Below are positions 52,401 to 63,723 of a DNA stretch of 64,000 nucleotides, in pieces. A program made the position numbers and the translations under genes. The stretch is from an uncultured Acidimicrobiia bacterium (GTDB taxonomy: Bacteria > Actinomycetota > Acidimicrobiia > Acidimicrobiales > AC-14): assembly GCA_963836205.1 (NCBI GenBank), contig CAWIIV010000023.1, positions 32,001 to 96,000 on the forward strand. The letters are read 5' to 3'. The notes beneath the pieces are model-generated. The model had not been told where the DNA came from. It was given only the letters and a program-made list of their open reading frames with translations, and searched no databases. Within the stretch, counting starts at the first letter, position 1, and every line of letters starts with the position of its first letter.

Positions 52401-52568
52401 CGCGCCGAAAACGGCCTGCGGCCGCGTCGTCGGTGGGATAGGCAACCACGGTAGATGGGCGGCAACGGGCCGGCCGTGGATGCGCACGCGAATCGAGAAC
52501 CCCAGGGCTTGACACCCCCGGAGACGCCGTGATTGTGTCGAGGAAACGGTGGAAGGCGGAGGTGCGGG

Positions 52569-54116
52569 ATGTGGAAGAGGCGGGCACGCGGGCGCGGGAT
52601 GCTGGTCGTGGCGGGAGCGATGCTGGCGGCGACGTTGGGGCCGGTGACAGCTGCCGACGCAACGAGTACGAGTCAGGCGGCCGGCGGACAGGGCCAGGTG
52701 CAACTCCTGGGGCAGATGTTCCTCGCCCTGCGGGCGGCCCAGTTCGACCGGACCATCGACTTCGGGCCCTTCGAGGACGTGTGCCCGGGGGCGTCATTCT
52801 GCGCGGTCCCGGCCCGGCCGGTGAAGTACATGCCAAACATCGACCTGGCGATCATCGAGCTCGATCAACAGGGCCAGGCGACGGCGGTGGCGAACGTCCT
52901 TCTCTCACGGGACTATCCCGCCGGGCTGCCCCTGCCTATCGACCGGGTGGCGGGTCCCGCGGGCAGTAACGGGGTGAGCGTCGTCCGCTGGCGGCGGTGG
53001 GATATCGACCGTTACAACGGCGGCACGTTCTCCCAGGACGACGGCCACCAGCTCACCCAGAAGGGGTGGAAGACCAATCCACCGCTCACGGCGGCGGACA
53101 ACATCGTCCCCGGGCGGTTGGGGACCCCGATCGACTTCATGGCGCCCTACCCGGCGTCACTGTTCAAGATCATCGTGGCCTTCCGGATCATGCGCCTGGT
53201 CGACTTCGGCCAGCTGAGCCTCGACCAGACCTATACCTACAACCCGGTCGCCTCGTTGGCGGCCGAGGGCAAGCAGCTCGACCAGCCCCTGGAGCGCCCG
53301 GTCGGCGTCGGGGTGGCGACGGCCGCGGCGGTGGCCGCGGAGGGAGAGACGCGGACCATCCGGGACTGGTTGGACCCGATGATCACTGTCTCGAGCAACA
53401 ACGCGGCGCGGGCCATGCTCAAGCTCCTCCACGACCGCAACGACCTCCCGGCCATGCACGCCGAGCTCCGGGGCCTGGGGCTGGGAACCCTCCAGGTGAA
53501 CGGCACCGACCCCGGCACCGGCGGTAACTGGCAGCCGGGCAGCATCCACATGACATCACTCGACACCGCCCGCCTGCTGTGGCTCATCGAGGGTGGGGCG
53601 GGGACGCTCTGGCTCCGTCCCGACGGACGGCCGGTCCTGGCGTCGCTGCTGTCCTCCAGCTCCCGCAGCTTCCTCAAGGGATTGCTCGACGACCAGGCGT
53701 TCCACGAGGCGCTGAGCACGGGGAGCCTGTGCGGCAAGGCCAACGTCCGGCCCGGTATCCCCGCCCTGGTGCCCGCCCGCTGGATCAACCCGGACGGCAC
53801 CGAGACGGCCGGCGGCTTCCCCTACGGCCAGGACGTCCGGCCCTGCAACGCGGCGGCCGAGGTGGTGTTCGGGCACAAGACGGGGCTCACGTTCAACTAC
53901 GGGTCGAATGCGGGGATCGTGCGGTCGCTGCCGGGCAAGCCGGAACGCCGCTACGTGATCGCGTTCAACTCGAGCCTCGGCTACCGCTACACGGACCCCG
54001 CCTTCGCCTCCCGCTCGTCCTACCCGTGCTACGACCCGGTCGGAGGCATCTGTTACACCCAGCGCATCCCGGCGATGGCGAAGCAGCTCGACGACTACAT
54101 CAAGTCGACTCCGTAG
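52569..54116 (+). CDS. Secreted serine hydrolase, class A beta-lactamase-like
   Basis: Signal peptide; PASLFK (SxxK), SSN (SxN) and HKTG motifs. Confidence 0.8.
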   Translation: MWKRRARGRGMLVVAGAMLAATLGPVTAADATSTSQAAGGQGQVQLLGQMFLALRAAQFDRTIDFGPFEDVCPGASFCAVPARPVKYMPNIDLAIIELDQQGQATAVANVLLSRDYPAGLPLPIDRVAGPAGSNGVSVVRWRRWDIDRYNGGTFSQDDGHQLTQKGWKTNPPLTAADNIVPGRLGTPIDFMAPYPASLFKIIVAFRIMRLVDFGQLSLDQTYTYNPVASLAAEGKQLDQPLERPVGVGVATAAAVAAEGETRTIRDWLDPMITVSSNNAARAMLKLLHDRNDLPAMHAELRGLGLGTLQVNGTDPGTGGNWQPGSIHMTSLDTARLLWLIEGGAGTLWLRPDGRPVLASLLSSSSRSFLKGLLDDQAFHEALSTGSLCGKANVRPGIPALVPARWINPDGTETAGGFPYGQDVRPCNAAAEVVFGHKTGLTFNYGSNAGIVRSLPGKPERRYVIAFNSSLGYRYTDPAFASRSSYPCYDPVGGICYTQRIPAMAKQLDDYIKSTP

Positions 54117-54149: not shown

Positions 54150-54582
54150 TGGAGCGTCGGCGCGGAATCCGTCGATAGCCCGGACGCCGTTGCGTTGCTA
54201 CGCGACTACTTCGCCGAGCTCACCGTCCGCTACTTCCACCGAGAGACCACGGACGAGGAGATCGACAAGACCCTCGAGGAGTTTCCGAGCACCGGCCTTG
54301 CGCTCTTCCTCATCCTCCGTGCACGCGGGGTGCCTGCCGGTTGCCTTGGCGTGCACCCGACCGGCGAGATCACGCGCATGTATGTCATCCCCCGGTTTCG
54401 CCGCAAAGGCGGCGCCCGCGCCCTCCTCACCGCCGTCGAGTCGTGGGCCCGCACCCAAGGCATCACCCGGCTGTTTCTCGACACCCGCACCGATCTCGTC
54501 GAGGCCCGAGCGTTCTACGCGTCGTGCGGGTTCATCGAAATCCCGCCCGCCACCAGTACGCCTGGCCCCTTCCAGGACCACC
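54150..54582 (+). pseudogene. GNAT acetyltransferase, truncated at its 3' end by an IS remnant
   Basis: EITRMYV.PRFRRKGGA and LDTRTDLVEARAFY..CGF; no clear start; C-terminus runs into IS481 sequence. Confidence 0.7.
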
Positions 54583-54913
54583 GTGACCTGGCGCCGGGCC
54601 CAGGAGCGTCCGACCCGGTAGCTGGTGCCGGCGAAGCAGATCGACCCCCCGCCGTCGGCCATGCGCACCTCGCACACCGCCTTGTAGCGCCTGCTCCACC
54701 GGTCCCAACTCCACGAGTACGGGGGCCTCCTCTGGATCTGCGGGCGCGAACGACCACAGCGAAGAAGGTGGCGACCGGCGGGTGGTGGACCCTCAGTCAA
54801 GCGTCAGTGTCGTGCAGGTACCGAAGCCAGTGTCGCCCAGGTACCGGAGCCGCGTCCGGGGAATGTCAGGTGGTACCGGAGCCACGGTGTCAACCATGTA
54901 CCGGAACCGCACA
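54580..54913 (-). mobile_element. Internally deleted IS481-family element (left end plus transposase fragments)
   Basis: Terminus reads TGTGCGGTTCCGGTAC on the minus strand from 54913; four TGTC-N5/6-GTACCG[G/A]A[G/A]CC repeats; RBS and LVELG.VEQ/RYKAVCEV joined directly to GSICFAGTSYRVG...RRQV. Confidence 0.65.
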
Positions 54914-55030
54914 CCAGGCAGCGAGCCTTTGGTTCTCAAAATGCTCATCACGGCGTCCTTGCCGGGAACAATCCACAGGCCGGGAAAACGCTGTTACCTG
55001 GACTTTTGTGGTGCGCCCGGAGAGATTCGA

Positions 55031-56452
55031 GAGAAATAGTCAAGACCTGTGGATCGGATTCCCGTCCGACTACGCGGCGGCTCCCTGATCCTGCTGGTTG
55101 GGGCGCTCGACCATCACCCCCTTCTCGAACTTGGTGCCGGCCCGCACCAGGGCCACGAGATTAGGGCCGTTCACCGCTCGCCACCGGTCCTGGGCGGACT
55201 CGATGAGCTTGAAGGCCATGGCCAGCCCGGCCACCCGGGATCCGGGGCCCTTGGTCACCTTGGTCCGCAACCGCACGGTGGCGAAGGTGGACTCGATGGG
55301 GTTGGTCGTCTTGAGGTGGATCCAGTGCTCGGCCGGGAAGTCGAAGAAGGCGAGCAGCGTCTCGGTGTCGTCGACGACCTTGGCCACGGCCTTGGGGTAC
55401 TTGGCCGCGTAGGCCTCGGCGAAGCCGCTGATGGCGGTGATGGCGTGGTCGCGGTCCTCGGCGTCACGGATGTCGGCCAGCATGCGCCGGGCGCTGCGCT
55501 GGGCCGACTTCGGCAGGGCGGACAACACGTTGGCCACCTTGTGGACCCAGCAGCGCTGGGTACCGGTGGCGGGGAACACCTCCCGCAGAGCCCCCCAGAA
55601 CCCGAGGGCACCGTCGCCCACGGCCAGCACCGGGGCCCGCATCCCACGGCGGCGGAGGTCCCGCAGTACGTCGGACCAGCTCTCCGTCGACTCCCGGAAG
55701 CCGTCCTCGATCGCCACCAGCTCCTTGGTGCCGTCGGCCCGCACACCCACGATGACCAGGGCACATAGCCGTTCTTCCTCGAGTCGGACGTTGAAATGGA
55801 TGCCGTCGGCCCACACGTAGACGTAGTCGACGGCGGAGAGATCCCGGTGGGCGAAGGCGGTCCGTTCGTCCTGCCACTGGCGGGTCAGACGGGTGATCAC
55901 CGAAGCCGACAGGCCGGCGGCGGAGCCGAAGAACTCGCCCAGGGCCGGGCTGAAGTCGCCGCTCGACATCCCGTGCAGGTACATCAGGGGCAGCACCTCG
56001 GCCACCTTGGGGCTCTTGCGGCACCACGGGGCCACGATGGCCGAGCGGAACCGGAGTCGGTCGCCGGTGTCGGGGTCGAGGCGGCGGTCGTCCACCCTCG
56101 GCGCCTCGATCTCGATCCCGCCCGCAGCGGTGGTGATGGTGCGGGCCTCGGCGTGGCCGTTGCGAACCACGCGCCGCCGACCACGCTCGTCGAGCTCGCC
56201 GGCCATCGCTTCGATGTACGCGTCGACTTCGGCTTCGAGGGCGGCGGCCAGCATCCGTCGGGCACCCTCGCGGACGATCTCGTCGAGCCCGGCCGTCAGC
56301 TCCGCGCGGGCGTCATCATCGGTGACTACTGTCAACATCGGCGTTCCTTCCTCGCCGGCGTTCCACCGCCAGCGACTACTCGTTTTGGTCAACGAGGAAG
56401 GTACGCCGCGCCCTCGAACGGGTGGGTGATCCACAGGTTCTGGTCATAACTC
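55031..56452 (-). mobile_element. IS256-family insertion sequence
   Basis: 25-bp imperfect IRs (GAGAAATAGTCAAGACCTGTGGATC / GAGTTATGACCAGAACCTGTGGATC); 9-bp TSD GAGATTCGA at 55022-55030 and 56453-56461. Confidence 0.93.
55070..56338 (-). CDS. IS256 (Mutator-family) transposase
   Basis: RNG, YVWADG, RES..SW, VGDGALG, QRCWVHK and TTNPIES motifs. Confidence 0.95.
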   Translation of the reverse strand: MLTVVTDDDARAELTAGLDEIVREGARRMLAAALEAEVDAYIEAMAGELDERGRRRVVRNGHAEARTITTAAGGIEIEAPRVDDRRLDPDTGDRLRFRSAIVAPWCRKSPKVAEVLPLMYLHGMSSGDFSPALGEFFGSAAGLSASVITRLTRQWQDERTAFAHRDLSAVDYVYVWADGIHFNVRLEEERLCALVIVGVRADGTKELVAIEDGFRESTESWSDVLRDLRRRGMRAPVLAVGDGALGFWGALREVFPATGTQRCWVHKVANVLSALPKSAQRSARRMLADIRDAEDRDHAITAISGFAEAYAAKYPKAVAKVVDDTETLLAFFDFPAEHWIHLKTTNPIESTFATVRLRTKVTKGPGSRVAGLAMAFKLIESAQDRWRAVNGPNLVALVRAGTKFEKGVMVERPNQQDQGAAA

Positions 56453-56623
56453 GAGATTCGAACTCCCAACCTTCTGATCCGTAGTTCGCACCAAGGGGTT
56501 ATCCACAGGTCGCCGTGAAGGTCCACAAGGCTCATCTCTGGCCTCTGAGCTGGGCTTTCGCGGATTGGCTTGAACCCGCAGATGACCGTGGTTGACCGCC
56601 CGTTTCAAGTTTTCGCCGACGTT

Positions 56624-56647
56624 TGGTTCTCACGGTGGTTCTCACGG
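56624..56647. repeat. Tandem 12-bp direct repeat (candidate integrase arm sites)
   Basis: TGGTTCTCACGG x2, about 140 bp inside the att core. Confidence 0.6.
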
Positions 56648-56827: not shown

Positions 56828-56871
56828 TTGACCGACGACCGGGCGCCATGCCATAATCGAACGTATGTTCG
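56828..56871 (+). promoter_or_regulatory. Promoter with overlapping LexA (SOS) box upstream of the HD operon
   Basis: TTGACC(56828)-18 nt-CATAAT(56852); TCGAAC-GTAT-GTTCG at 56857-56871. Confidence 0.75.
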
Positions 56872-57029
56872 TCTCCCGTCCGGCGCCCCGACGCCCGCGG
56901 AACGGTGCCGGACAGTGGTCGACGTCGGCAGTAGAAACGGCTGCACTCCCGGGGGGGCATCCCAGACGCCGGTGTCATCGACAATTACGCTGTGAGGTTT
57001 CGGGTGAAAGCAGGGACGAGAACGCTCCA

Positions 57030-58364
57030 GTGACGGCTTGGCAAGAAATACGAGACCCAGTACACAACTTCATCAAGGTAACTTCGTACGAACGGCGAGT
57101 GATCGATTGTCCTGCGGTACAACGGCTTCGACACATACATCAGCTCGCAATGTCGTACCTTGTTTATCCTGGCGCAACCCATCGTCGGTTTGAGCATTCT
57201 CTAGGGGTCATGCATCTCGCTGGCGAGGCGTTCGATGTTGTAACTGCCGCCGAAAATATCACCGATGAGGTCCGTGACCTCATACCTGAGCTGAAAGAGA
57301 CCCAAAACTTCGACTATTGGCGAACGGTAGTTCGCATGGCCGCTTTATGCCACGATCTCGGTCATCTGCCGTTTTCTCATGCAGTAGAGCACCACCTGAT
57401 GCCTGACGGCTATAACCATGAGCGCCTGTCCATGGACCTAATCAACGGGCCCGAGTTGACGGCCATTCTTGCCGACATCATCCCTCCTATCCAACCGGGT
57501 CTGCTTGCGAAACTCGCCGTCGGACCCGGAAAGGCAAAGGGACAGGCATTCAATACGTGGGAAGCGATCCTATCCGAGATCGTTGTGGGCGATGCCTTCG
57601 GCGTCGATCGGATGGATTACCTGCTGCGAGATTCACTTCATGCGGGTGTTCAGTACGGACGATTCGATCACCATCGCCTACTGGATACCTTGCGCATACT
57701 CCCTGCAGCACCGGCTGGGGACACTGAGGACGCATCTGAGCCCTCTCTCGGAGTAACCGAGGGTGGCCTACACGCCGCAGAATCTCTCCTGCTAGCTAGA
57801 TACTTTATGTGGACGCAGGTATATCTTCATCCTGTTCGTGTTATGTACGACGCGCATCTCCACGACTTCCTTCAGGCCTGGCTTCCCGATGGTCGATTTT
57901 CGGTCGATCTCGAACGACATCTCGCTCTGACGGACCTGGAAGTGCTCGCAGCAATGAGGGCCTCACAATCGAATCCCGAAGCGCCCGGTTTTGAAGCTGC
58001 GCGACGGATCTTGACTCGTGGTCACTTTCGTCGTGTATTTGACCGCGCGCCAAGCGATCTTAGTATTACTCTTGAACCCGGCGCTGCCATCGCAGCGGCT
58101 CTCGCAACTAAATACGATGATGCGAATGTAAAGACAAAGAAGTATGCACCCGGAAGCGGAGGAGTCGAGTTTCCGGTTAAGGTTCATGATGGATCAGTCG
58201 TATCATCCACCTCGTTATCTGCAGCCTTGCGTGGACTGCCAAAAATAGTCGTGGACCAAGTCTTCGTTGAGCCTTCCTTGGCCAAGGAGGCTCGCACTTG
58301 GCTCGCCAGCAATAAGAGGTTGGTACTAGAGGCTGCGGCTGTAGATGAAGGAGCAGAGGAATGA
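57030..58364 (+). CDS. HD-domain dNTP triphosphohydrolase-like protein (SAMHD1/YwfO family)
   Basis: IRDPVH, QRLRHIHQL, YPGATHRRFEHSLG, HDLGHLPFSH, DRMDYLLRD and VYLHP motifs. Confidence 0.9.
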   Translation: MTAWQEIRDPVHNFIKVTSYERRVIDCPAVQRLRHIHQLAMSYLVYPGATHRRFEHSLGVMHLAGEAFDVVTAAENITDEVRDLIPELKETQNFDYWRTVVRMAALCHDLGHLPFSHAVEHHLMPDGYNHERLSMDLINGPELTAILADIIPPIQPGLLAKLAVGPGKAKGQAFNTWEAILSEIVVGDAFGVDRMDYLLRDSLHAGVQYGRFDHHRLLDTLRILPAAPAGDTEDASEPSLGVTEGGLHAAESLLLARYFMWTQVYLHPVRVMYDAHLHDFLQAWLPDGRFSVDLERHLALTDLEVLAAMRASQSNPEAPGFEAARRILTRGHFRRVFDRAPSDLSITLEPGAAIAAALATKYDDANVKTKKYAPGSGGVEFPVKVHDGSVVSSTSLSAALRGLPKIVVDQVFVEPSLAKEARTWLASNKRLVLEAAAVDEGAEE

Positions 58365-58918
58365 ATCGACTCCAACGAGCGGCAATTCTTGGCCTTCTCG
58401 TGCAATCACTACGCGATCGTGGAAGTTGGGCCGGTGAGACACACGTTCAGAAGGCGGCGTATCTCCTCGAGCATGCAGCCGGCGTCCCTCTGGATTACGA
58501 ATTTGTACTCTACAAGCACGGCCCTTTCTCGTTTGATCTCCGTGACGAGTTGAATGACTTCAGCGGGGACGGCCTACTTGTTATTGAGCCCCAAGTCTAT
58601 CCGTACGGGCCAAGGTTGCGCGTAACTGACTTGGGTCAGAAGAACATCGAGTTGCGAGACCAAACGGCAAATCAGTACCAGGGTGCAATCGCTACAGTCA
58701 CGCTCTTCATCGGCGATCGGGGTGTGGCGGCTCTAGAGCGACTAGCAACCGCGTTCCTGCTCCATTCTGAGTCGCCGAACGCCTCGGACGAGGAAATCGC
58801 AACCCGCCTGGTCGAGGTTAAACCGCACGTAAGCCGGTTTGATGCGTTGTCGGCTGTCAGAGAGATGCGAGTTGCGGTTCCTTCCTTGCTGACATCAGGG
58901 TCATCCGGCCCCAGTTGA
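58361..58918 (+). CDS. SocA/Panacea (DUF4065)/YwgA-like protein
   Basis: HVQKAAYLL...YEFVLYKHGPFSFDL and LERLAT motifs; ATGA coupling to the HD gene. Confidence 0.68.
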   Translation: MNRLQRAAILGLLVQSLRDRGSWAGETHVQKAAYLLEHAAGVPLDYEFVLYKHGPFSFDLRDELNDFSGDGLLVIEPQVYPYGPRLRVTDLGQKNIELRDQTANQYQGAIATVTLFIGDRGVAALERLATAFLLHSESPNASDEEIATRLVEVKPHVSRFDALSAVREMRVAVPSLLTSGSSGPS

Positions 58919-59827
58919 TTCGTTCGTGCTTGGAGTGGGCGCAACTGGAAAACCAAAACGACGAGCTCCAGGGCCGGATAGCCATCTACTACCCTCCTCG
59001 CATGTGTCGGAAATCGAGCAATATCGACACTGGCTCCCAGGGTGGCGCAGCTGGGGTTCCTTGCTGAATCCTGCTTGAACGGCCACGACTGTGGCCGCGG
59101 TGCATACAGCTTGGACCCCCTCCTCGATTAGTGCTGGATCGACGTCTATCTGCACAGTTCGATGTGCCCCACAGTCTGGGAGAAGCGCGACCACTCTTAC
59201 CGGCTCCTCACCCACAAGTGCTGCCATCACTGCGGCGAATCCTAGCTCTCTTCGGATATATTCGCTCCAGGCGCCGTTAAGGATCAGCCCAAGGGTCAAT
59301 TCCCCATCAACTCTGTATAGCAAGTCGATTCGGCCAGCGATTCGGAGCGCCCGACCTGGGTACTCCCATGCAGGCCTCCAACCAATCCGAGTCCCAGGAG
59401 GCAGAGGCCAGACGCCGATCGCTCGTGCAGCTCCGGAAACAAAAGAGATGGCTCTTTGACCAATCATTGCCCGTTCCGGCTTGCTCGCACCATACCGGAT
59501 CCATTCCCAGGGCCAGCGATTGCTATCGCCGTTCCGAAATGCCTCGACGAAGGCGCGAGGTGGGCCAACCGAAAAATCGAGTTCGCAGAGTGAGTCAAGC
59601 GCGCTAGCTCGCCAAACAGTATTGACACTTGACTCGAATGGAGTGGAAGGCGTCGCAGCCTCCCTCGCCGGACAGACGAGGGATTGGCGGACTTGCCATG
59701 CGCCCACTTGCAACCGCTCGTCCTCCGCTGCGTCCCAATACTTGCCGGGAGCACACCGCTCCGCAACAACACTTAGTTGGTCGGTTAGTGCCTTCCGTAC
59801 TGAGTCGTGCCGCTTAGAAGGGGTCAT
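58901..59827 (-). CDS. Cas4/AddB-like PD-(D/E)XK-fold protein, catalytic ExK apparently missing
   Basis: N-terminal CP; GRIDLL without a following (D/E)xK; C-terminal PGSQCRYCSISDTC. Confidence 0.65.
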   Translation of the reverse strand: MTPSKRHDSVRKALTDQLSVVAERCAPGKYWDAAEDERLQVGAWQVRQSLVCPAREAATPSTPFESSVNTVWRASALDSLCELDFSVGPPRAFVEAFRNGDSNRWPWEWIRYGASKPERAMIGQRAISFVSGAARAIGVWPLPPGTRIGWRPAWEYPGRALRIAGRIDLLYRVDGELTLGLILNGAWSEYIRRELGFAAVMAALVGEEPVRVVALLPDCGAHRTVQIDVDPALIEEGVQAVCTAATVVAVQAGFSKEPQLRHPGSQCRYCSISDTCEEGSRWLSGPGARRFGFPVAPTPSTNESTGAG

Positions 59828-60776
59828 CGGCCAATCTTTCCCTGAACTCAACAGGTAGCTCCGCAGTGACTTGAGCCGACGGACATTGCTTGGCGTCCGG
59901 ACACCAACCGCAGCGATATGACGGGTTTTCGGTGGGAATCCGGCCACCCGCCAACTCACCTGCCAATATGAGGGCATCCCCCAGCCGCCTCGCGGCTGAA
60001 CGCAGTTCGTCTTCGCCAATCCAGATGTCGTCGACCGCTCCGGTCTCGCCGCAGCAAGTGATGACACAGTCCGGCGGGATACCGTCACGAAACGCAACGA
60101 GGAGCGCGTACAGGAGGGCATCCTCAATATCCTCCCGCCGAAAGCGTCTCGACTTTGTCTCGATGATCGCGGCTCGACGGCTAGTCGGCGGTCCACCAAG
60201 CACGATATCTGCCCGGCTATCGATCATCACCTCGCCATCGGCCAGCGTGAGACACGCTCGGTCCTGGACTCTCGGCCACCATTCGCCGCTCAGTTGCGGC
60301 CAGTCATCTAGGAGGCGTAGACGTCGTTCTGTGAGATCCTCTTCAAGGGCTTTGCGCAGGCCTGCGTCCAGAGCGCCGACCCAGTCGAGAATGCCCTCGT
60401 TTTGGTCTCCGCTGGCCCGGAGCAACTCAATGGCTAGATCCAAGGGAGGGTCGTCGAGCCGTCCTGCAGTGACCCGATGGCTGCAAAGTAGGTCGAGAAG
60501 TACGCCTAACACCAACTCCGACGTGACATCTGCGTCCTGGGGTCTCAGCATCGCAAGCATGTAGCGCTCGCAATCAAGCATCTGCCGAATCCGACCCTTA
60601 GAGAGCCGAAGCGGCTCAGCGCCAAGGGGGAGGCTGGCAAGTTCGGTCGCTCGGCGGGCGGCGTCCTCGAGGTCGTCGAGAAGGGCCGAGACGATGCCGT
60701 CAGCGATGCGCCGTGAACTGCCCCCGTTCGCCCATCTCTCAATCAGTGCAGCGAACTGAGTTTGCCCTTCCGCCAT
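59814..60776 (-). CDS. Cas4/AddB-like PD-(D/E)XK nuclease with a four-Cys cluster
   Basis: LSKGRI...DCER, SRADIV...IIETKS, LLYAL and PSYRCGWCPDAKQC motifs. Confidence 0.8.
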   Translation of the reverse strand: MAEGQTQFAALIERWANGGSSRRIADGIVSALLDDLEDAARRATELASLPLGAEPLRLSKGRIRQMLDCERYMLAMLRPQDADVTSELVLGVLLDLLCSHRVTAGRLDDPPLDLAIELLRASGDQNEGILDWVGALDAGLRKALEEDLTERRLRLLDDWPQLSGEWWPRVQDRACLTLADGEVMIDSRADIVLGGPPTSRRAAIIETKSRRFRREDIEDALLYALLVAFRDGIPPDCVITCCGETGAVDDIWIGEDELRSAARRLGDALILAGELAGGRIPTENPSYRCGWCPDAKQCPSAQVTAELPVEFRERLADDPF

Positions 60777-61057
60777 GTCAAGGAACACTACCGCTGGGCC
60801 TCGCTGGAGAGGTGCACGTGGCCAACCAAACGTGCCGACCAGACTCTCGTCTTCTCGGCAGGGCGTCCGTGATTCCTGTCAACCCCGGCCTCACGCGACC
60901 TGGCCCTTTGTCTCCGCCTCTCGGATCCAGAGGCGTGCGTCCCGACTGGACACCCTCGTCCGGGACGCGAGATCTCGAACGTCGTTACGGCCTAGTTCAA
61001 TATCGGACCCGACTACGCACAGACGAGTGCATTGCGTCCCGCGGGACGGCAGCCGTG

Positions 61058-63723
61058 ATGCGGGCCACGAAGCTCAAGGCCGATGGTGCCGGCGTGACGG
61101 GGCTCGTGGGCTACTACGCCGGTCTGGCCGAGGACCAGCTCCGACGGGATGGGCGGAGCCGGGGGCCGATCGACTACTACCTCGACCCCAACGAACCGCC
61201 GGGCCGGTGGTGGGGCGGCGGCTCCGCTGCCGTCGAGCTGTCCGGCGACGTCAGGCCCGAGCATCTGGAGGCGTTGCTCCACGGCCGCCAACCCGGCGAT
61301 GGGCGGCAGTTGGGACGGGGCTTCGGGGCCAAGTCGGCCCGGGCCTTCGACGCAACCTTCTCGGCCCCCAAGAGCGTGTCGGTGCTGTGGGCGCTGAGCC
61401 CGGATGCCTCGATACAGGCCGAGGTGCTCGCCGCCCATGACGCGGCCGTCGTCGCCGCTTTGGACTGGCTGGAGCAGCACGGGGGAGTCACCCGGCGGGG
61501 CAGAAACGGCGTCCACCAGGTCGACACCAGGGGATTGGTGGCGGCATTGTTCCGACAGCACACCAGCCGGGACGTCGACCCGCAGCTGCACACCCACGCT
61601 GTCATCTGGGCCAAGGTCCAGGACCCAACCGGCAAGTGGCTGTCGCTCGACGCCCGGTTCCTCAAACAGCAGCAGCGTCCGATCGGCTGGGTCTACGCCG
61701 CCGCCCTACGTTCGGAGCTGTCGGCCCGCCTCGGAGTGTCGTGGGGTCCGGTAAACGAGGGCCATGCCGACATCGAAGGAATCCACGCGGGGATGCTCAC
61801 ACTCTTCTCACGGCGCAACGCCGAGGTCGACGCCAAGCTGGCCGAGGCCGTTGCCGCCTGGGTCGACGACCACGACGGCGCTGAACCCGACTCCCGCACC
61901 CTCTACCACCTGGAGCGAAACGCCGTCCTTGATAGTCGGCCGGGCAAGTCCGAGCCTGTTCCGGCCGACGAACTACGACGCGAGTGGGTGGCCCGGGCCC
62001 AGGATGCCGGTTTCGAACCGCTCGCCGTCCCACGCTGCCCACTCCAACTGACCCAGGACGCGTCCTGGGATGACGAAGCAGTCATCGCCCAGGCCCTGGA
62101 CATGGTGGCCTCGTCGTCGTCGATCTGGCTGCGGGCCGACCTGGCCCGGGAGATCGCTGCACGCCTCCCTGCCGAGGCAGCCAACTCGGCCGCCGACGTC
62201 GGCGGATCGTCGACGAACTGGCCGAGCGGGCTGGCCAGCGGTGCGTCGAGCTGCACCCGCAGACGACGAAGGGTGCGGCCCGCAGGCGCGACGGCCGGCC
62301 TGTCACCGAGCACGTGGTGGAGCGCAGGCTCAGCACGGCGGCGGTGCTGGAACAGGAGGCGTGTCTCTTGCGCTGGGCCCGGGCCAATGTCGGGACTCGC
62401 CGACCATCAGCACCCGGCGACGACGCGTACGCCGTCGCCGCCCGAGACGTAGCCGGCGATCACCGCCTCGTCCTGGTAGTCGGCCCTGCCGGTGCCGGCA
62501 AGACGACGATGCTGGCGACGGCGGTCGCCGAGCTGGCGGCGCAGGGACGAGCAGTCGTCGGCCTGGCGCCGTCGGGCAGGGCCTCCGACGTACTGGGCCG
62601 GGAGACCGGCTCGACAGCCACCACTCTGGCCAAGCGGCTCCACGAATACGGCCGAGGTGACGGGCCGCAGCCCGAGTGGCGCCTGGAGCGAGGGACCACG
62701 ATCATCCTCGACGAGGCTGGGATGGCATCGACCGACGACCTCGCTCGCCTGGTCGCCCTGGCCGACCGCCATGACTGGCGACTGGTGTGCGTCGGGGACC
62801 CGGCCCAGCTTCCGGCAGTCGGCCGAGGTGGCATATTCGCCCATTGGTGCGCAGTCCTCCCCGCCCGCCACCTCGGCGAGGTGAGGCGCTTTGCGGAGCC
62901 GTGGCAGGCGGAGGCCAGCCTGCTCCTACGGGAGGGCGATCCGGCCGCCGCCGCGCTCTATGCCCAGCACGGACGGTTGCGCACCGTCCATCCCGCCCTC
63001 ATTGCCGACCGGGTCGCCCGCCAGCACGAACGGCAGGCCGCAGGAGGCGCCATCGTCGCCATCACCACCGCCTCCACGAGCACGGCCCGAGCCATCAACA
63101 TCGAGATCCAACGGCGTCGCAACCCCCGCCAGGTCGGACGGTCGGTGTTGCTGGCCGACGAGACGAGAGTCTTCGTCGGGGACCGGGCCGCCACCCGCCG
63201 CAACGATCCCGGCCTCGTCACTACCGGCGGCGGCGCCGTTCGCAACCGCCAGACGTGGACGGTTACCGCCATCGGCGACGACGGCTCGCTCGCCGTCGCC
63301 GACGCCGAGCGTGGTTCGGTGCGCCTGCCTGCGGAGTATGCCGCCCGCCACGTCGAGCTTGGATGGGCCGTCACCGGCTACGGCAACCAGGGGACAACCG
63401 TCGACCACGGCATCTGCGTGATCGAGCCGGCGAGCACCCGGGCCGGCATCTACGTGGCCATGACCCGGGGCCGGGGCCACAACGACCCTTGGCTCGTCGA
63501 CCGCACCGGCAGCGCCGACGCCGAGGCGTCCTTCGCCGCCGCCATCGCCCGGCCGCCCAACGCCGGGACCGCCCACGCCGTCCGGGACCGGCTCTACCGA
63601 GCCGCGGGCGTTTCCCCACCGGAGCCGGCCCTCCCGGCATTGACGGACGACGACCCGGCTCGACGGATGGCCGAGCACCTCAGCCGACTGCCGGCCCAGC
63701 GGCCACCGAGTCTGAGCCGATGA
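61058..63723 (+). CDS. MobF (TrwC/TraA-like) relaxase-helicase (frameshift near 62205)
   Basis: YY motifs, DATFSAPKSVS, HTSRDVDPQLHTH and FSRR; second frame has GPAGAGKTT, DEAGM, VGDPAQL and YVAMTRGR. Confidence 0.9.

Follow-up and report, generated by a model that had tools for sequence, protein, structure and literature searches.

A tandem pair of Cas4/AdnA-like iron-sulphur nuclease paralogues, one with a degenerate active site, as a predicted heterodimer in Acidimicrobiales

We analysed a stretch of 64,000 nucleotides (from here on the window) from an uncultured Acidimicrobiia bacterium (assembly GCA_963836205.1, contig CAWIIV010000023.1, positions 32,001 to 96,000 of the forward strand) and focused on two overlapping minus-strand genes, here called A and B, whose products resemble the iron-sulphur (Fe-S) nucleases of the Cas4, AddB and AdnA type. 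The pair is laid out in the window as follows:

59814..60776, minus strand: gene A, 320 amino acids (aa), a Cas4/AdnA-like PD-(D/E)XK nuclease and the predicted catalytic subunit
58901..59827, minus strand: gene B, 308 aa, a paralogue of A and the predicted non-catalytic Fe-S subunit
59814..59827, minus strand: A/B overlap of 14 bp, the stop of A lying over the start of B
60777..61054, between divergent genes: intergenic region of ~280 bp between A and a relaxase gene, presumed to hold the A-B promoter

The minus-strand open reading frames (ORFs) as listed span 59814..60788 (frame of A) and 58901..60199 (frame of B), and the starts were set from a scan for in-frame start codons together with the N-termini of homologues, which assigned ATG 60776 to A and ATG 59827 to B. 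The relaxase gene that diverges from A likely starts at GTG 61055 or ATG 61058, and no sigma-70-like site was scored in the intergenic region between the two. The 14-bp overlap suggests that A and B are translationally coupled, and such coupling would yield both subunits together. At its other end B overlaps the plus-strand gene 58361..58918 tail-to-tail by 18 bp (58901-58918), and the arrangement described in the original prediction, i.e. two overlapping minus-strand genes with such a neighbour, is confirmed in its coordinates. A look-up of sequencing runs for expression listed no RNA run for this DNA; two soil DNA runs had shares of 0.07 and 0.05.

The pattern of an iron staple (one N-terminal Cys and a C-terminal CxxCx5C) is conserved in both the A and the B family. 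The relevant residues of A are C69, R188-A-D190, E206-T-K208, Y223 and C289-x2-C292-x5-C298, and in an alignment of 39 sequences of the A family C69, D190, E206, C289 and C292 are invariant and K208, Y223 and C298 at least 90% conserved. The motif set of the RecB family (GxhD, hhExK and QxxxY) is found in A as G-R-A-D190, I-I-E206-T-K208 and D219-A-L-L-Y223, the third with D where Q is usual. Of this set only G-R-I-D168 remains in B, which has C52, R166-I-D168, the sequence L-I-L-N-G at the place of ExK and C267-x2-C270-x5-C276. Neither the ExK nor the Tyr was found in any of 44 aligned B-family sequences (B of the window and 43 relatives); in the same alignment no sequence departs from C267, C270 or C276, and C52 is kept in at least 90%. 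B ends in a tail, W-L-x-G-P-G-x-R-R-F-G-F-P, for which the family consensus W-L-x-G-P-G-R-x-R-x-G-[FLI]-P is widely conserved. Both alignments bear out what had been read from the two sequences before, namely RAD...ETK in A and RID without ExK in B. The Cys pattern noted at that time stands as regards P..CxxCxxxxxC and the single conserved N-terminal Cys of each protein, and not as regards the Cys content as a whole, which is 9 in A and 8 in B. Given the conserved Cys residues, both proteins may bind an Fe-S cluster.

AlphaFold2 modelled both proteins with high scores (predicted local distance difference test, pLDDT, 90.6 for A and 94.7 for B; predicted template modelling score, pTM, 0.87 and 0.89, respectively), and by structure both belong to the RecB-like PD-(D/E)XK fold. 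A Foldseek search of the PDB gave the AdnA nuclease domain as a top match of A (E 4.4e-7) as well as of B (E 8.5e-7), along with, for A, ACE1, RecE, the Cas4 protein SSO0001, Dna2 and AddAB and, for B, ACE1 and Cas4. There were 25 (A) and 21 (B) matches at E <= 0.001, and the ones listed are all of the Cas4, AdnAB, AddAB, RecE, Dna2, Exo5 or MGME1 type. By sequence the signals are much weaker, and the A profile found chance-level matches alone among PDB chains (E 0.13 and 0.24). A profile-profile comparison relates the two families over nearly their full length (266 columns) at a probability of 99.1% and E 1.3e-18, well beyond chance. FastTree was used for a tree of 94 sequences, whose midpoint root serves the drawing alone; in it 45 B rows lie on one side of a branch with support 100, and 40 A rows lie on one side of a branch with support 87, beside 9 rows of a lone type that is described below (support 90). 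A and B are, to judge from their sequences, ancient paralogues, and since their clades are separate in the tree the duplication that led to the dead subunit would predate the split between the window copy, which lies on a genomic island, and the copies in Acidimicrobiales chromosomes.

A word-indexed search of 5.8 billion proteins returned 13 relatives of A (8 at 51-60% identity, all metagenomic), 6 of which have a precomputed assignment to PF12705 (PDDEXK_1), and 3 relatives of B besides the window's own product. With B, a HMMER search of 1.84 billion cluster representatives gave 82 matches at E <= 0.001, of which 23 reach E <= 1e-10 and 11 reach E <= 1e-30, and on these sequence searches the B family is real but rare. 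A relative of A (A' of locus L019) passes PF12705 with 30.7 bits at a cut-off of 22, and matches in a protein atlas were unnamed Actinomycetota PDDEXK_1 clusters alone. No match was found for A in NCBIfam (E up to 1) or PHROG, nor for B in Pfam, NCBIfam, PADLOC or PHROG; in PADLOC A matched DruK alone, at E 0.013, which we counted as not significant (PADLOC-DB 2.0.0, a library of 2023, with later defence systems outside its coverage). Metagenome contigs scanned with an alignment of the close A clade yielded two short loci alone (L040 and L041). A tblastn search with A gave no match in plasmid records or phage records, and a scan of viral contigs with the A alignment gave 29 pattern matches, none of which was confirmed.

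A and B travel together and co-occur wherever there is enough downstream sequence. When 185,579 species, each represented by one genome, were scanned for the pattern, 37 A-type loci with 32-40% identity to A came up, by title from 32 metagenome-assembled genomes of Acidimicrobiales, Acidimicrobiia or Acidimicrobiaceae, 2 of an 'Actinomycetota bacterium' and 3 of an 'uncultured bacterium'. At least 1.8 kb lies downstream at 30 of the 37; the other 7 end within 700 nt, too short to judge. All 30 judgeable loci have a same-strand gene of ~300-400 aa after the A-type gene, with an overlap of 4 bp in 20 of them. A profile made from window B and 3 close homologues (the island clade) matches 29 of the 30 downstream proteins (E 2e-13 to 2e-6), and CxxCx5C is likewise present in 29; the exception (L008) is on a contig whose neighbouring gene also looks fragmented. 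Searched with phmmer, the same 30 proteins were matched by window B in 23 cases and by window A in none. A B homologue directly follows the A homologue in both metagenome loci as well, at L040 with a 14-bp overlap as in the window (read from the ORF translation), and the pair is also present in the genomes G043 and G283.

Related genes also occur alone. Of 401 genomes sampled from the phylum, 115 had a match to the B profile, with adjacent double matches in this genome and in G283 only, and the other full-length single matches resemble a lone, motif-intact paralogue. A search among relatives gave a match in 49 of 61 genomes; nine of these loci were examined, of which eight hold the lone motif-intact paralogue and one (G043) the pair. 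Both tallies include genomes flagged unpublished, on which no individual claim is based. The genome studied here has a lone paralogue of its own (contig C17, 52.6-53.4 kb; L002:1336-2310) with G-K-V-D, D-L-K and CxxCx5C, which has no B partner and adjoins PNPOx-like and MazG genes. The lone-paralogue family also appears uncharacterised.

The predicted complex of A and B scored 0.89, against 0.01 for the best of three controls; the complex runs share at least 95% of their contacts, with a partner pLDDT of at least 89. No solved structure of two Cas4-like chains in such a complex is known to us, so a pass from the memory of the model seems unlikely. The predicted interface of A includes the family signature WPRVQDRA (167-177), E-P-L-R-L (54-58), G-P-P-T (195-198) and R-D-G (230-232), and conserved positions are over-represented in it (18 of the top 48 by conservation, 8.6 expected, p 3e-4). 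B contributes, among others, residues 185-187, the place of the degenerate ExK, as well as D-C-G-x-H-R (218-223) and its conserved C-terminal tail (282-298). The catalytic residues of A (D190, E206, K208 and Y223) lie outside the predicted contacts, and because of this a role of B as a partner fits the model better than a role as an inhibitor. An active/dead heterodimer had been put forward in the original prediction, with co-occurrence of the two genes as one of its checks. Given this co-occurrence (30 of 30 judgeable loci, L040, L041, G043 and G283) and the complex score of 0.89 against 0.01, together with the fold and the dead motifs of B, a heterodimer of an active and a dead Fe-S nuclease of the Cas4/AddB-like type is well supported by sequence and structure prediction.

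We consider it probable that A and B together make up one DNA nuclease of the Cas4/RecB/AdnA fold that works without a helicase, with B as an obligatory subunit, and that they form a self-contained module that is horizontal cargo in the window. A would carry the active site. B, which lost the ExK and the Tyr and kept the four-Cys iron staple, would be indispensable to A, either for structure or for binding DNA. If the enzyme works like the AdnA nuclease domain, Cas4 and ACE1, it would most likely cut at forks or DNA ends, on single-stranded DNA, 5' tails or flaps. The two-gene module would be inherited vertically in one Acidimicrobiales lineage, and the divergent copy in the window would have been acquired horizontally as cargo of an element, independent of the two plus-strand genes that adjoin it (the HD/DarG-C-like module described below). 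The basis of this proposal is in silico and consists of gene structure, motifs, fold, paralogy, co-occurrence and the predicted complex; from these we infer Fe-S binding, nuclease activity, substrate and biological role.

Several points weigh against this proposal. Three of the 13 closest A sequences have another residue for the Lys of the ExK motif (N in P0001 and P0003, T in P0006), and A itself reaches 16.9 bits (E 0.0063) with PDDEXK_1, which is under the 22-bit cut-off. The complex score expresses how confident the model itself is. In its calibration 58 of 80 solved complexes and 2 of 110 mismatched pairs came up to the mark; the alignments used there were of other kinds, so these counts hold only roughly. 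On B the interface shows no excess of conserved positions (8 of the top 48, 7.3 expected, p 0.46). The genomic contexts cover a minority of the family members, the 8 close A homologues (51-60% identity) and the 82 B clusters lying outside them, and both the substrate and the part assigned to B are drawn by analogy.

The pair lies in a patch of four genes (56.5-60.8 kb) with a GC content of 55-62%, against ~69% on both sides, and the following features surround it in the window and just beyond:

55070..56434, minus strand: Mutator-family (IS256-type) transposase (PF00872, E 3.7e-65), at the left edge of the low-GC patch
56865..58364, plus strand: HD phosphohydrolase (HD + HD_assoc_2), weakly dGTPase-like, outside the A-B pair
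58361..58918, plus strand: DarG C-terminal-domain-like protein, 185 aa ('SocA-like' in the original prediction), outside the A-B pair
60713-62452, plus strand: TrwC relaxase ORF, right of A-B
62314-63723, plus strand: AAA_30 superfamily 1 (SF1) helicase ORF, 1.5 kb from A
63766-64014, plus strand: HTH_17 excisionase-like gene, after the helicase ORF
G000:C23:97306-98457: tyrosine integrase, just beyond the end of the window

Because of the low GC content and the flanking transposase, relaxase, excisionase and integrase genes, the A-B copy of the window appears from its sequence context to be cargo of an integrated mobilisable element and to have been acquired horizontally. Among the A-B loci examined it is the only one on a mobile element. 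The original prediction had the pair without a helicase partner, and this stands in so far as none of the 7 UvrD-family matches in the genome is on the A-B contig and no helicase was seen among the identified neighbours at other A-B loci; it has to be amended for the AAA_30 SF1 domain nearby.

Some further observations were made on the element and its surroundings. The TrwC ORF (to 62452) and the AAA_30 ORF (from 62314) overlap in different frames; this split of the relaxase could be a frameshift, an assembly error or genuine, and the element may no longer be mobilisable. A 26-nt direct repeat (54928-54953 and 56622-56647, 77% identical) brackets the Mutator-family transposase gene and may mark insertion ends. 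Left of the low-GC patch lies a GNAT gene (ORF 54195-55088) with its family match in residues 12-119 alone, and the tail of this ORF may be an artefact or a fusion made by an insertion. Just left of the mobile region, 52533-54116 (plus strand) encodes a protein of 527 aa whose N-terminus is signal-like and which contains a Beta-lactamase2 domain of class-A-like type (PF13354, E 2e-11). A second low-GC patch is found on the same contig ~24 kb past the end of the window (G000:C23:120000-123000, 59-64% against ~72%).

At nearly all other loci the pair is found in an ordinary chromosomal setting and not in a defence island. In 35 of the 37 Acidimicrobiales loci a gene for an ABC1 kinase lies directly upstream on the same strand, and thiamine genes (thiD, thiG and thiC) lie convergently downstream; other identified neighbours there include those for an enoyl-CoA hydratase and an ACT-domain protein. 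In G043 the pair is located between a short-chain dehydrogenase (SDR) gene and a patatin-like gene, in G283 after an APH-family kinase gene and before an MFS transporter gene, and at L040 after an NHL-repeat gene, where the GC content of the pair is 61% as compared with 69% in the neighbouring gene. A protein-kinase-like gene is found directly upstream of A-B on the same strand in two unrelated forms, an ABC1/UbiB-type (35 of 37; L003-L039) and an APH-type (G283; L074:9081-10082), and this adjacency could be a functional link or an inherited gene order; it may hint at regulation. No kinase gene adjoins the copy in the window. For the family as a whole, a role in DNA metabolism is favoured by the stable chromosomal synteny within one lineage, and the mobile low-GC copies leave room for a role in defence or for the element in the island clade.

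The HD and DarG-C-like genes overlap by 4 bp. The 185-aa protein resembles DarG (PADLOC E 3.7e-9; NCBIfam E 7.3e-8, below the cut-off) and has no match in Pfam. Homologues of the HD protein were found in 35 of the 401 sampled genomes of the phylum (this genome counted), with no other in its own order. At 19 other HD loci a DarG-C-like gene is adjacent in 4 (E 5e-40, 8e-11, 5e-9 and 2e-8) with 2 weaker cases, and an A- or B-like gene was found within ~1.5 kb of none of the 19. The HD/DarG-C-like module recurs at L055, L056, L057 and L063, all from other Actinomycetota. A promoter-like site (56828-56857) ends just before the HD start codon (ATG 56865), and the transcript may be leaderless. Going by gene order and sequence similarity, the HD and DarG-C-like genes form a two-gene module separate from A-B, which resembles an independent pair of the toxin-antitoxin or defence sort.

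An anti-phage or anti-plasmid role had been part of the original prediction, and a stand-alone defence system, with the heterodimer detecting the ends or replication intermediates of invading DNA and degrading them, would be in line with a location in the low-GC cargo of a mobilisable element beside a toxin-antitoxin-like module, with the GC difference at L040, which suggests a horizontally moving clade, and with the part played by the Cas4-family ACE1 enzymes in Argonaute-based immunity (PMC12094033, in the parts available to us). We nevertheless consider this role unlikely, since 35 of the 37 Acidimicrobiales loci are syntenic and chromosomal, with the ABC1 kinase gene upstream and thiamine genes downstream, and the loci of G043 and G283 lie among SDR, patatin, MFS and APH genes, all of which look like housekeeping surroundings. 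The DruK match of A and the lack of any PADLOC match of B do not speak for defence either, nor does the lack of copies in phage and plasmid records (both searched with A) and in viral contigs. A bolder form of the idea, which we put forward as a tentative and rather doubtful one, is that A-B is a hitherto unrecognised two-subunit 'solo-Cas4' machine in which the Fe-S pseudonuclease B, with no helicase involved, targets the active nuclease A to DNA ends or licenses it there, the mobile lower-GC clade having become a portable defence or anti-defence module of integrative elements. If the mobile clade does act against phages or plasmids, it would be a new two-gene type of defence.

It is improbable that A-B is an accessory of the mobile element that serves in DNA processing during transfer, integration or establishment, possibly with the relaxase-helicase. 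A is divergent from the TrwC relaxase gene at a distance of ~280 bp and the SF1 helicase domain is close by, but neither relaxase nor helicase genes were seen among the identified neighbours at other A-B loci, the GC content of the pair (~60%) differs from that of the relaxase region (~70%), which points to a later cargo insertion, and the split relaxase may be defective.

Very improbable, in our opinion, is a toxin-immunity (addiction) pair with A as a toxic nuclease and the dead B as its bound inhibitor. The apparent tight translational coupling, the confident predicted complex and the adjoining toxin-antitoxin-like module would suit such a pair, but the catalytic residues of A are left free in the predicted complex, B retains a four-Cys site for which an inhibitor would have no use, and the stable synteny in 35 of the 37 loci of one lineage is unlike that of addiction modules. 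The four-gene unit of the original prediction, in which A-B degrades DNA and the HD enzyme and its partner remove the released nucleotides, has hardly any probability left and is largely refuted by co-occurrence already, for although the four genes share one low-GC patch and abut (with the 18-bp overlap of B and the DarG-C-like gene), the two gene pairs are transcribed convergently, none of the 19 other HD loci has an A- or B-like gene nearby and no HD- or DarG-like gene was seen among the identified neighbours at other A-B loci.

A helicase-independent two-subunit nuclease, the reading that we prefer, can be compared with several known systems. Fe-S nucleases of the Cas4 family and of the AdnAB/AddAB type have a central part in CRISPR adaptation, in Argonaute immunity and in the resection of double-strand breaks, and what the solo members do is poorly understood. 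With Cas4 and solo-Cas4 the pair shares the fold, a site of the D...ExK type and the arrangement of one N-terminal and three C-terminal Cys residues (PMC12094033, consulted in part), and like solo-Cas4 it is encoded apart from cas genes (according to the sections seen of PMC5704561). The Cas4-family protein ACE1 is described as a single-stranded DNA endonuclease with a D-DxK site and an Fe4S4 cluster (PMC12094033, same sections). A and B are not members of the Cas4 family as defined by TIGR00372, for which relatives reach 18-19 bits against a cut-off of 65 bits, and they are ~100 residues longer. They come as an active/dead pair, of which no mention was found in the portions consulted of PMC5704561 and PMC12094033, and they lack a context of cas1, CRISPR array or Argonaute: as had been noted from the sequence, neither cas1 nor an array is near, with no Cas1 match in the genome (88.6% complete) and no CRISPR-like array between 40 and 64 kb in the window.

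The AdnA nuclease domain of mycobacterial AdnAB is the best or near-best structural match of both A and B, at 14-17% identity in the structural alignments. It holds an Fe-S cluster and takes the displaced 5' strand, with the Fe-S subdomain at the DNA fork (PMC13000450, as far as the text was available). A (320 aa) and B (308 aa) have no motor or helicase domain and fall outside AdnAB/AddAB; moreover, both nuclease sites of AdnAB are active, whereas B is motif-dead. The B-family profile also matches the C-terminal parts of 1000-1900-aa open frames in other Actinomycetota, which we take to be AdnAB-type proteins. A separate canonical AdnAB-like pair is present in this genome (contig C6), and with this pair and the lack of Cas1, A-B would be neither an AdnAB replacement nor part of a CRISPR system. 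The idea of a helicase-less stand-in for AdnAB was dropped, as the genome has its own AdnAB-like genes; the neighbours identified at the Acidimicrobiales loci also do not follow the gene order of the mycobacterial adnAB region. AddB of AddAB has an Fe-S iron-staple nuclease domain like that of A and B and works in an enzyme of two subunits, one of them with degenerate modules, but its dead module is a helicase and not a nuclease (PMC3321194, in the part consulted), and A and B are without any helicase module.

A tandem active/dead pair of solo Cas4-like genes was not found described in the literature as far as it was accessible (supplementary files were outside the search), including the parts seen of PMC13621843 (2026), which discusses solo-Cas4. 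The fold and the chemistry of A-B are familiar, and it is the predicted obligate heterodimer with a conserved Fe-S pseudonuclease that we did not find described. XPF-ERCC1 and Mus81-Eme1 likewise combine a catalytic subunit with a degenerate paralogue that is needed for assembly or DNA binding; these are eukaryotic or archaeal, have the ERCC4 fold and contain no Fe-S cluster. If the proposal holds, A-B would be a clear example from bacteria of a nuclease that has a pseudoenzyme as its partner, its live/dead Fe-S pair would represent a compact, helicase-free form of the Fe-S nuclease class, and a system of ~630 residues would be well suited for asking what the iron staple does apart from catalysis.

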